From: Edaphobacter sp.
GTDB taxonomy: Bacteria; Acidobacteriota; Terriglobia; Terriglobales; Acidobacteriaceae
Length of the DNA: 64,000 bases
Assembly: GCA_039922475.1 (NCBI GenBank)
Contig: JBDTEQ010000069.1
Coordinates: 549 to 64,548 of the forward strand
Direction of reading: 5' to 3'
In this document: positions 11,777 through 13,281 of the stretch, one piece after another
Numbering within the stretch: position 1 is the stretch's first letter
Layout of the letters: each line of letters starts with the position of its first letter
Notes under the pieces: model-generated
Told to the model about the DNA's origin: nothing
The model's input: only the letters and a program-made list of their open reading frames with translations
The model's database searches: none
Translations under genes and position numbers: made by a program

Positions 11777-13281
11777 CAGCACCGGCAGCACCCAAAACTC
11801 TCTTCGAAAAAGTCTGGCAGCAACACCTCGTCGCCGAACCCGCAGGCGAACCTTCGCTTCTCTATATCGATCTGCATCTCGTGCATGAAGTCACCAGCCC
11901 GCAGGCCTTCGAAGGTCTTCGCATGACTGGACGCAAACTCCGCCGCCCCGACCGCACCGTTGCCACCGTCGACCACAACGTCCCGACGAGCAGCATCGAA
12001 GACCGTCTCCACATCGTCGACCAGATCGCATCGAAGCAGATCGAAGCCCTGCGCAAAAACTGCGCCGACTTCGGTGTCGAACTCTACGACGTGCAGTCGC
12101 CCAATCAGGGCATCGTCCACATCATCGGCCCCGAGCTCGGCCTCACCAAACCCGGCATGACTATCGTCTGCGGCGACTCGCACACCAGCACCCACGGCGC
12201 CTTCGGCGCACTGGCCTTCGGCATCGGCACCAGCGAGGTCGAGCACGTAATGGCCACGCAGACCCTGCCGCAGGACAAACCGAAGACCTTCCGCATCAAC
12301 GTCGAAGGCACGCTTCCCCTAGGCGTTACAGCGAAAGACATCGTCCTCCACATCATCGGCCAGATCGGCACCGCCGGAGCCACCGGCCACGTCATCGAAT
12401 ATGCAGGCTCTGCCATTCGCAATCTCTCGATGGAAGGCCGCATGACCATCTGCAACATGAGCATCGAAGCCGGAGCGCGTGCAGGCATGATCGCCCCCGA
12501 CGCCACCACCTTCGCCTATCTCAAAGATCGCCGCTTCTCGCCTGGCACTATCTATAAAGATTGTCATCCTGAGCGAAGTGCGAAGCACGAAGTCGAAGGG
12601 CCTGCGGCTTCTTCCTCAGTTGATGAAGCCGTCTGGAACGAGGCAGTAAAACACTGGTCCGAACTTGTAACCGACACAGGAGCAAAATTCGATCGCGAAC
12701 TCACCATCGCCGCCATCGACATTACTCCCACAGTAAGCTGGGGCACATCACCTGGCATGGTCACCGGCGTCAAAAGCACCGTTCCCCTCGCCGACCCCAA
12801 CGCATCCGAAGCGGATCGGAAAGCCTTCGAGCGCGCGCTGGAATACATGGGCCTCCATGCAGGCGAACCCATTGAAGAGATCAAGATCGACCGCGTCTTC
12901 CTCGGCTCCTGCACCAACGGACGCATAGAGGACCTTCGCGCCGCCGCCTCGGTAGTTCGCGGCTATCACGTAGCCACCACCGTTCACGCTATGGTCGTCC
13001 CCGGTTCGCAAGCCGTAAAGTCGCAAGCCGAAAAAGAAGGCCTCGACAAAGTCTTCACCGCAGCAGGCTTCGATTGGCGCGAACCCGGCTGCAGCATGTG
13101 TCTCGGCATGAACCCCGACATCCTGCAACCCGGCGAACGCTGCGCCAGCACCAGCAACCGCAACTTCGAAGGCCGCCAGGGCCGCGGTGGCCGCACGCAT
13201 CTTGTCAGCCCACAAATGGCTGCAGCCGCCGCCATCACCGGACATTTCACCGACATTCGCAACTGGAAGTTCAACCCATAA
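11773..13281 (+). CDS. leuC: 3-isopropylmalate dehydratase large subunit, carrying an in-frame repeat insertion
   Basis: 502 aa. Aconitase-family motifs [34 protein letters not shown] and NRNFEGRQG. An extra segment [26 protein letters not shown] is present. Confidence 0.95.
12562..12615 (+). repeat. family-A repeat (long form), in frame inside leuC
   Basis: tgtcatcctgagcgaagtgcgaagcacgaagtcgaagggcctgcggcttcttcc. It has the same termini as the intergenic copies and an internal GTGC-gaa-GCAC hairpin. Confidence 0.85.

Follow-up and report, generated by a model that had tools for sequence, protein, structure and literature searches.

The window studied here is a 64,000-nt (64-kb) stretch of DNA from Edaphobacter sp. 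(Acidobacteriaceae; contig JBDTEQ010000069.1). Its leuC gene encodes the large subunit of 3-isopropylmalate dehydratase and includes an extra segment, part of which matches a short hairpin repeat that is dispersed over the same DNA. We consider it likely that this segment is a copy of the repeat, which resembles repetitive extragenic palindromes (REPs), and that it was made coding at a permissive loop of LeuC and is tolerated there. Below, leuC alleles with extra sequence at this site are called filled and those without it are called empty; L numbers denote related loci and P numbers denote orthologous LeuC proteins.

A repeat copy in the leuC reading frame

The sequence TGTCATCCTGAGCGAAGTGCGAAGCACGAAGTCGAAGGGCCTGCGGCTTCTTCC occupies positions 12562-12615, inside the leuC open reading frame (ORF). 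The copy begins, at 12562, with the first base of codon 264; it is read in frame as 18 residues and has no stop codon. An earlier reading of this DNA, made without database searches (the sequence-only reading), had described a 54-nt in-frame copy that starts on a codon boundary within an ORF of 502 aa, and this description holds. It had also assigned the copy to a repeat family. Such a family does exist: eight exact matches to the gapped pattern TGTCATCC-N(8-38)-GGRNCTGC are present in the window, all of them on the + strand, and none in 100 shuffles. Looser inspection gave 12 copies in 64 kb, all with the tag on the + strand. The full 44-nt string of the leuC copy occurs once in the window, while its termini recur.

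The extra DNA in leuC is longer than the repeat itself and has the following parts.

12544-12633, + strand: whole extra segment, 90 nt, codons G258-V287, replacing 12 nt (QGAA) of empty-site orthologs
12544-12561, + strand: 5' spacer GGCACTATCTATAAAGAT (GTIYKD), AT-rich, outside the dispersed repeat; its start GGCAC is common to other filled leuC alleles
12562-12610, + strand: REP-like core, long form, with the TGTC tag, ATCCTGAG, four CGAAG pentamers (spacing 7, 7 and 6 nt) and then GGGCCTGCGGCT
12578-12588, + strand: inner mini-hairpin GTGC-GAA-GCAC, 4 bp, from folding
12611-12633, + strand: 3' spacer; its end GTTGATGAA-GCCGTC (VDE-AV) is common to most filled leuC alleles, including an 88-aa allele in L087

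The window protein has 30 residues where orthologs have four (QGAA). The net gain is 78 nt, or 26 codons, both in the protein alignment with 120 orthologs and when the DNA is aligned with that of L081, L082 and L083 (flank identity 84-91%). An alignment of long-form copies (12562, 31744, 33934, and copies in L085, L086 and L088) is conserved from TGTCATCC to CCTGCGGTT and not beyond. Therefore the repeat core in leuC extends over approximately 12562-12610.

Some details of the sequence-only reading have to be revised accordingly. The residues on both sides of the copy had been taken for the normal LeuC linker; in fact 'G...TIYKD' and 'SVDEAV' belong to the extra 90 nt. We also considered the GT...VDE flanks as a part of the mobile element and rejected this, as no other copy in the window bears such flanks; they therefore belong to the leuC allele lineage and not to the mobile repeat. 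The gap in the ortholog alignment does not coincide exactly with the 54-nt element, since 90 nt stand in place of 12 nt. The comparison of 502 aa with the 466 aa of E. coli LeuC is correct in itself, but close relatives have 474-485 aa, so only 26 of the 36 extra residues stem from the insert site.

The empty site in orthologs

The close-ortholog set was obtained by a protein search and includes 120 LeuC sequences from Edaphobacter-like Acidobacteriaceae, 86-95% identical to that of the window. About 100 of them read RRFSP-QG-AAWDEAV at the insert site. Canonical spacing was found in 219 of the 233 LeuCs that have both anchor motifs, including all 120 diverse matches of a profile search; these canonical proteins come from relatives 95% identical outside the site as well as from other phyla, and more than 200 of the orthologs read FSP-QGAA-W here. 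An outgroup panel was obtained by scanning contigs with LeuC and consists, among the matches listed, mostly of distant phyla with few close relatives. The outgroups (other Acidobacteriota, Paenibacillus, Bacillus, Labrys) have, among the matches listed, four residues between P and W/F. Because 219 of 233 LeuCs are canonical and the outgroups are empty, the empty site is the ancestral state of LeuC. A homologous segment in repeat-free genomes was not found in any of these comparisons.

The same data bear on the opposite direction of events, in which the leuC loop would be ancestral and the dispersed repeats would be derived from it. The sequence similarity itself is compatible with this, and nothing further speaks for it. 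We give it practically no credence, as the segment is missing from the outgroups and from 219 of 233 LeuCs, and many genomes have the repeat, in various flavours, between their genes.

Integrity of leuC and the location of the insert

The gene was identified by a PF00330 match, by the name 3-isopropylmalate dehydratase large subunit carried by its 86-95% identical orthologs, and by conserved synteny. Comparison with three empty-site orthologs gave a ratio of nonsynonymous to synonymous substitution rates (dN/dS) of 0.025-0.13 at dS of 0.5-0.7, and leuC is thus under strong purifying selection. The window LeuC retains all residues that do not vary across an alignment of 80 sequences, including the D135-S136-H137 motif and C380, C440 and C443; we take these three to be the cysteines of the Fe-S cluster. 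The proposal of the sequence-only reading that an essential enzyme of the aconitase family tolerates a repeat-derived peptide, as with Rickettsia palindromic elements (RPEs), is supported by this selection and by the retained residues, and it passed all the checks that were made here.

A rival reading is an assembly error at the repeat, or a leuC that is a decaying pseudogene. The source is probably a metagenome-assembled contig, only one contig (87 kb) has this protein, and assemblers can be misled by repeats. However, both leuC flanks are contiguous and in frame, and homologous insert-bearing alleles are present on 21 independent metagenome contigs, which makes an artefact unlikely. The dN/dS values, the lack of stops and frameshifts and the retained invariant residues argue against a dead gene. 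We judge either possibility to be very improbable. Removal of the segment by an intein or by self-splicing also seems very unlikely, because this stretch of 26-30 codons is low in complexity and variable between alleles. As the length of the added DNA is divisible by three and the frame contains no stop, the segment would be transcribed and translated as a flexible loop of ~26 residues between two helices.

An AlphaFold model was built on the 80-sequence diverse alignment, made from sequences of the profile search (with a shallow alignment limited to close sequences, 86% identical or more, the predicted local distance difference test score, pLDDT, was 35). The model has a mean pLDDT of 80 and a predicted TM score of 0.85, and it matches the large subunits of archaeal isopropylmalate isomerase and homoaconitase (4KP1, 4KP2; TM of 0.84-0.88). 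Between helices 244-250 and 285-296, residues 262-279 are without secondary structure, at a pLDDT below 50. The structural check suggested in the sequence-only reading was thus successful in part: the model places the site in a low-confidence coil between helices, but solved structures are not alignable there. In particular, sequence matches to PDB entries (4KP1, 4KP2, 4NQY, aconitases) stop at residues 254-259 and resume at 367, so the site could not be mapped by sequence. The coil prediction and the natural length variation suggest that the insert is a surface loop. It would be solvent-exposed and lie away from the Fe-S cluster and from the interface with LeuD.

The dispersed repeat family

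All 12 copies in the window begin with TGTC followed by ATCC; in related loci both TGTC and CGTC are present. Two main forms can be distinguished. The short form is TGTC-ATCCTTCGC-GNA-GCGGAGGAY-CTGC and is present at 13293, 14041, 17193, 35160, 35216, 56433 and 59326. The long form, TGTCATCCTGAGCG...AGTCGAAGGACCTGCGG with a variable middle, is present at 12562, 31744 and 33934. In addition to the leuC copy the window includes:

13293-13321, + strand: short-form copy, intergenic, 12 nt past the leuC stop; 9-bp stem ATCCTTCGC/GCGGAGGAT, GCA loop
14041-14069, + strand: short-form copy, intergenic, 16 nt past the leuD stop
17193-17221, + strand: short-form copy in frame in ilvB, read as 10 residues
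31744-31803, + strand: long-form copy, intergenic; its inner hairpin is variable and has 9 bp
33934-33975, + strand: long-form copy in frame in rimO, read in a different frame as VILSEGAAVVEGPA
35160-35188, + strand: short-form copy, intergenic, first of a head-to-tail pair (56-nt spacing)
35216-35244, + strand: short-form copy, intergenic, second of the head-to-tail pair
52186-52206, + strand: minimal variant TGTCATCCCGTAGGGATCTGC, between two minus-strand ORFs
56433-56463, + strand: short-form variant, intergenic, between divergent ORFs
57916-57937, + strand: minimal variant TGTCATCCCGAAGGGAACCTGC, intergenic
59326-59354, + strand: short-form copy in frame in sdaA (L-serine dehydratase), read as 10 residues; its tail CTTCTTCCTCCTCAG resembles CTTCTTCCTCAG of the leuC copy

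Short-form copies fold as clean stems of 8-9 bp with a GNA loop. Loops in the family are 3 nt long (GAA, GCA or GTA), and the tail, CTGC, leads into a run rich in pyrimidines. The stem flavours differ yet pair: ATCCTTCGC/GCGGAGGAT (9 bp), ATTCTGAGC/GCTCAGAAT (9 bp) and ATCCC/GGGAT. Several copies end with GGAC and lose the first stem pair. In the leuC copy, pairing is limited to TCCT/AGGG and the 4-bp inner hairpin. Hence the designation of the family as a hairpin repeat is well founded for the short-form copies and less so for the leuC copy with its 4-bp mini-hairpin. Likewise, the leuC copy was said to share both termini with the copies at 13293, 14041 and 35160; the 5' end is indeed shared, but these three are short-form copies ending with GCGGAGGAYCTGC, and the 3' terminus GTCGAAGGNCCTGCGG is common only to the copies at 31744 and 33934.

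A conserved target motif was sought 5' of the tag and was not found; the upstream sequence is merely AT-rich. An Rfam scan of the window at gathering thresholds returned only the signal recognition particle (SRP) RNA, and the repeat matches no curated RNA family. Our literature search found no paper describing this acidobacterial repeat. Two copies directly follow other intergenic repeats: a tandem (GCAGTY)n hexamer array at 52051-52182 is immediately upstream of the copy at 52186, and three 21-nt tandem units (CCACAACCCTTGTCNNCCTTT) at 56347-56426 are immediately upstream of the copy at 56433.

Four of the 12 copies are intragenic and in frame (leuC, ilvB, rimO and sdaA). The ilvB copy is in the linker between the central and C-terminal thiamine pyrophosphate domains; a 94%-identical ortholog in L083 lacks the 10 residues there, and relatives vary at this site, where inserts of two other kinds are present (TNNQQPATNN; RVPHPSQSHRDGWV). 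The copy in rimO (33290-35053) belongs to a low-complexity linker ~112 residues longer than in Thermotoga RimO (PDB 4JC0), and this linker may hold further decayed repeats. In sdaA (58642-60150) the copy is located early in the alpha-chain region, which is ~36 residues longer than in Legionella SdaA (PDB 4RQO).

A hypervariable site in LeuC of relatives

Extra sequence at the exact position of the insert was found in 14 of the 120 close orthologs. It is of several kinds:

P0011, P0097, P0069: other tagged repeats
P0028, P0042, P0085, P0093, P0114: short non-repeat expansions (7-10 residues)
P0006, P0010: a second, different acidobacterial repeat
P0029, P0039: an 88-residue low-GC insert

In a neighbour-joining tree the filled alleles are scattered among empty ones. 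The nearest relatives are empty both for the window (P0002, 94.9% identical) and for P0029 (P0059, 96.8% identical). We additionally scanned metagenome contigs with the pattern 'LK(G/D)RRFSP + up to 31 nt + GTCATYC' and obtained 21 further contigs with at least 14 more distinct filled alleles. In total, at least 18 distinct repeat alleles are present at the same LeuC codon position. The scanned alleles have ATCCT, ATTCT or ATCCC stem cores, and one is a doublet. Their elements are read in two frames, (C/R)H(P/S)ERS... and (L/S)SSR(S/P)E.... Nearly all of them, and also the 88-aa allele, share the non-repeat flanks of the window allele, SP-GT...(V/I)DE-(S/A)-x-W. The site thus tolerates from 4 to 90 residues in nature.

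The second repeat family is unrelated to the first one and is found in frame in the LeuC loop (P0006, P0010) as well as in the IlvB loop (L095, L107); it encodes peptides such as GCPTSGFSDVGS, GAPSLTASSSRVGS and RVPHPSQSHRDGWV. The 88-aa insert (L087, 3778-4047, GTIQSDEVKNLTVNGWRIGFEKVKF...ELAATVDE) has the same GT/VDE flanks as the window allele and is present in two non-sister lineages. It has no Pfam match and no significant match among PDB sequences (best E = 0.5), and a word-based protein search, which gave only two candidates, revealed no homolog. A more distant member of the Acidobacteriaceae, L001 (chromosome OY970381.1), has yet another LeuC-site insert, ~30 residues longer than usual (AGFPRASSTADFKDSERSGIHSFAAFRSAIGPDL).

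The allele of L088 is similar in form to that of the window: its insert has the same length of 90 nt and is 77% identical without gaps. The inner hairpin is GCGC-GCA-GCGC in L088 and GTGC-GAA-GCAC in the window, i.e., both arms are changed and the pairing is kept. In the 300 nt on each side, the window is 91% and 86% identical to L081 vs 84% and 67% to L088. No recombination tract wider than the insert is visible in these flanks. The flanks are those of the window's own clade, therefore any transferred tract is confined to the insert itself. Taken together, the window insert appears to belong to an old class of filled alleles with a remodelled interior and not to be a fresh, clean insertion. 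This class either moves between lineages by recombination or was lost many times.

One could suppose that such an insert persists because it is useful, with either the peptide or a nucleic-acid hairpin being selected (for mRNA stability, for translation pausing between LeuC domains, or as a loop in LeuC-LeuD assembly). The persistence through divergence, with alleles of 90 nt at 77% identity in the window and in L088, fits such a function, as do the paired change from GTGC/GCAC to GCGC/GCGC and the conservation of the GT and VDE(S/A)xW flanks across many alleles. However, the peptides are highly variable, of low complexity and read in differing frames (CHPERS..., LSSRSEAEGS..., SSRPEAK...), most close relatives and all outgroups live without the insert, and the repeat is also present in enzymes unrelated to LeuC. 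Shuffled sequence folds as well as the hairpin of this copy, and the paired change is equally explicable by gene conversion from other copies. We regard a selected function as improbable.

A mechanistic explanation of the hotspot is a recurrent landing pad. A Y1 transposase of the IS200/IS605 or REP-associated tyrosine transposase (RAYT) type would cut beside the (C/T)GTC tag, with excision and re-insertion at the exact site; the hotspot would then reflect mechanism and not survivorship alone. This would account for the at least 18 different cores of several subfamilies between the same GT...VDE flanks, and for the tendency of the leuC copy to match the stem flavour of its genome (ATTCT in L089, L092 and L093, ATCCT in the window). 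A repeat of varying flavour just past the leuC stop in several genomes and the location of all copies on one strand also agree with it, as does a PF01797 Y1_Tnp gene 3 kb downstream of leuC in L087. On the other hand, the spacer from the GGCAC flank to the tag varies between 16 and 28 nt and gives two reading frames, i.e., the position is inexact, and there is no conserved target motif before the tag. The non-repeat expansions and the unrelated repeat family at the site fit a permissive loop better, the hairpins beside the L087 transposase gene differ in sequence, and no transposase was found to be associated with CGTC-tagged repeats (Di Nocera 2013, PMC3733652). On balance a landing pad of this kind seems unlikely to us.

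The transposase locus of L087 deserves a separate description. The hairpins neighbouring its PF01797 Y1_Tnp gene, which is located 3 kb downstream of leuC, are of a different sequence: a cluster of GAAG-loop hairpins at 7470-7640 (GCGCCGAAGGCGC, CCTAGGCCGAAGGCCTAGG, GGGCTGAAGGCCC) adjoins the 3' end of the gene. This related genome may thus have a system of its own, IS200/IS605-like or REP-like, at this place.

A broader possibility, which we put forward tentatively, is that the LeuC and IlvB loops are long-lived cassette sites with persisting, travelling flanks (SP-GT ... VDE-x-x-W) and an interior that is repeatedly swapped. The swapped contents would include REP-like cores, doublets, the second repeat family, and the 88-residue insert in two lineages. 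If this is true, the turnover of REP-like repeats takes place on the spot, either through excision and re-insertion directed by the tag or through gene conversion from other copies, and such sites could be entry points for new protein domains.

Strand bias and the proposed course of events

The tag is on the + strand in 12 of 12 copies (two-sided P about 5e-4), including the copy between two minus-strand ORFs. With crude ORF calls, the + strand has a GC skew of -0.235 where ORFs are on the + strand and of -0.247 where they are on the - strand, and the third-position skew is about -0.5 in both sets. In every 8-kb window along the sequence the + strand skew is between -0.12 and -0.29. Because all 12 copies are on the same strongly C-rich strand, we infer that the spread of the repeat involves single-stranded DNA during replication.

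Our preferred explanation, tolerance of a REP-like copy at a permissive loop, can be formulated as follows. An Acidobacteriaceae repeat with a (C/T)GTC tag followed by a stem starting with AT would become coding sequence at a permissive loop of LeuC. The enzyme would keep working, and the insert would most likely add nothing to catalysis, being selfish or neutral DNA tolerated by selection. Repeats would land widely and survive only in permissive loops, which would explain the repeated use of the same LeuC and IlvB loops. The reuse of the same loop in two enzymes fits this survivorship filter; a target preference is compatible with it too. The site would be old, and its core would have been replaced or homogenised toward the repeat flavour of each genome by re-insertion at the tag or by gene conversion.

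A number of observations count against this explanation or limit it. Only ~49 of the 90 nt match the dispersed repeat, and 90 nt replace 12 nt, so the insertion was not clean. A target-site duplication was sought at the leuC and ilvB junctions and was not found; host bases are replaced, not duplicated. The hairpin of the leuC copy is weak: with an RNA-folding z of -0.77, its fold does not surpass that of shuffled sequence. Even the least diverged of the empty-site orthologs are distant (dS of 0.5-0.7), so the insertion event is not datable. The low pLDDT of the insert does not prove surface exposure. The non-repeat flanks are common to alleles of lineages with an identity of only 82-87%, while the site is empty in the nearest relatives; to reconcile these facts, alleles must have been exchanged laterally or lost repeatedly. 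Finally, all but one of the 41 copies in related loci point in the direction of the leu-ilv operon, so the strand bias could follow transcription, and only one to three copies in the window adjoin minus-strand ORFs. The co-orientation means that a replication-coupled single-strand bias and a transcription-linked one are not separable with these data.

Gene context

The leu/ilv cluster is on the + strand of the window, and its gene order is kept in related contigs:

9767-10891, + strand: leuB
11075-11776: 233-aa ORF, between leuB and leuC
11773-13281, + strand: leuC coding sequence (3-isopropylmalate dehydratase large subunit), uninterrupted ORF, 502 aa
13390-14025, + strand: leuD
14186-15883, + strand: ilvD
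16152-17951, + strand: ilvB (acetolactate synthase large subunit)

The 233-aa ORF overlaps the leuC start by 4 nt and has no Pfam match. All related loci examined have a gene of similar size (231-268 aa), likewise without a Pfam match, at the position between leuB and leuC; the ORF is therefore probably a real, uncharacterised member of the operon. The small SRP RNA (Rfam RF00169, 66.8 bits) is on the - strand at 31435-31532, ~210 nt from the long-form copy at 31744.

Comparison with known repeats

The closest known elements are CGTC-tagged REPs (Di Nocera, De Gregorio and Rocco 2013, BMC Genomics 14:522; PMC3733652). Their tag, CGTC or often TGTC (variants TGTC, CCTC), is directly beside a stem of 8-9 bp with A-T and T-A as the first pairs; the loop has 4-5 nt, and the short tail, near CCA, is unpaired. 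They mostly form head-to-head dimers, are located mainly downstream of ORFs and have no dedicated transposase (PMC3733652). The superfamily includes RPE-4 and RPE-6 of Rickettsia conorii, and intragenic in-frame GTAG- and CGTC-tagged REPs are known in many species, including in housekeeping proteins (PMC3733652). Five phyla are listed in that study, and Acidobacteria is not among them (PMC3733652).

Copies in the window resemble these REPs in the TGTC tag adjoining the stem (12 of 12), in having a small loop and a short tail, and in being dispersed at a high copy number (12 in 64 kb), with sites past gene ends and four copies intragenic and in frame. As to the stem, the likeness is partial: short-form copies have 8-9 bp with A-T/T-A first, several copies lack the first pair, and the leuC copy pairs weakly. 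An obvious dedicated transposase was not seen here either, though the window as a whole was not searched for one. They differ in having loops of 3 nt (GNA) instead of 4-5 nt and a CTGC(T/G) tail instead of CCA. In addition, they are singletons or head-to-tail copies on one strand, without head-to-head dimers, and the copy in leuC is of the expanded long form, having four CGNAG units and a weak hairpin. The acidobacterial element behaves like these repeats and is thus a probable relative of CGTC-tagged REPs with an incomplete fit, and we do not claim its membership as proven.

RPE-1 and related families (Ogata et al. 2000, 2002; via PMC10969869 and PMC3733652) are palindromic repeats found in frame in unrelated essential genes. 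It is thought that proteins can fold and function with the extra peptides; RPE-1 has a length of about 100-150 bp and occurs in the reduced genomes of obligate intracellular alpha-proteobacteria (PMC10969869, PMC3733652). The leuC insert is similar in its in-frame insertion into functional genes and its coil site, the comparison being one of behaviour. Unlike RPE-1, the core is 29-60 nt long and the host is a free-living soil member of the Acidobacteriaceae. Also unlike RPEs, many different elements occur at one orthologous site; we found no equivalent report on RPEs in the literature consulted on the topic.

GTAG-tagged REP/REPIN elements with RAYT transposases are said to have been described by Nunvar in 2010, Bertels and Rainey in 2011, and Ton-Hoang in 2012. 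REP/REPIN elements are short GC-rich hairpin repeats of high copy number with occasional intragenic copies, and their mechanism is thought to act on single-stranded DNA. The present repeat is likewise a short hairpin of high copy number with occasional intragenic copies, but its tag is (C/T)GTC and not GTAG, and no inverted doublets are present among the copies in the window. No REP-flanked RAYT gene was seen in the window, though no whole-window transposase search was made.

Intragenic MITEs (transposable elements of the miniature inverted-repeat type), such as ERIC, Nezha and the Anabaena MITEs, are small non-autonomous repeats that can form in-frame fusions with host ORFs (Delihas 2007; review PMC10969869). 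Our element is similar as a small repeat joined in frame to a host ORF. It differs in being a single hairpin without terminal inverted repeats or target-site duplication and in being much shorter.

Implications

The type of event described here is already known from Rickettsia and other bacteria. What the present data add is the density of in-frame copies, the many-allele series at LeuC and the unexplained 88-aa insert. In-frame insertion of repeats in essential enzymes is best known from Rickettsia and is usually discussed for reduced intracellular genomes; here it is found at a high density in free-living soil Acidobacteriaceae, with four housekeeping genes affected in one 64-kb window. For annotators and phylogeneticists this is a warning that repeat-derived segments are not homologous protein sequence. 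The series of LeuC alleles (empty, at least 18 repeat variants, and the 88-aa insert) shows where LeuC is permissive and can serve as a ready map for adding tags or inserting domains. It also provides material on the spread and turnover of transposase-less CGTC-tagged repeats.

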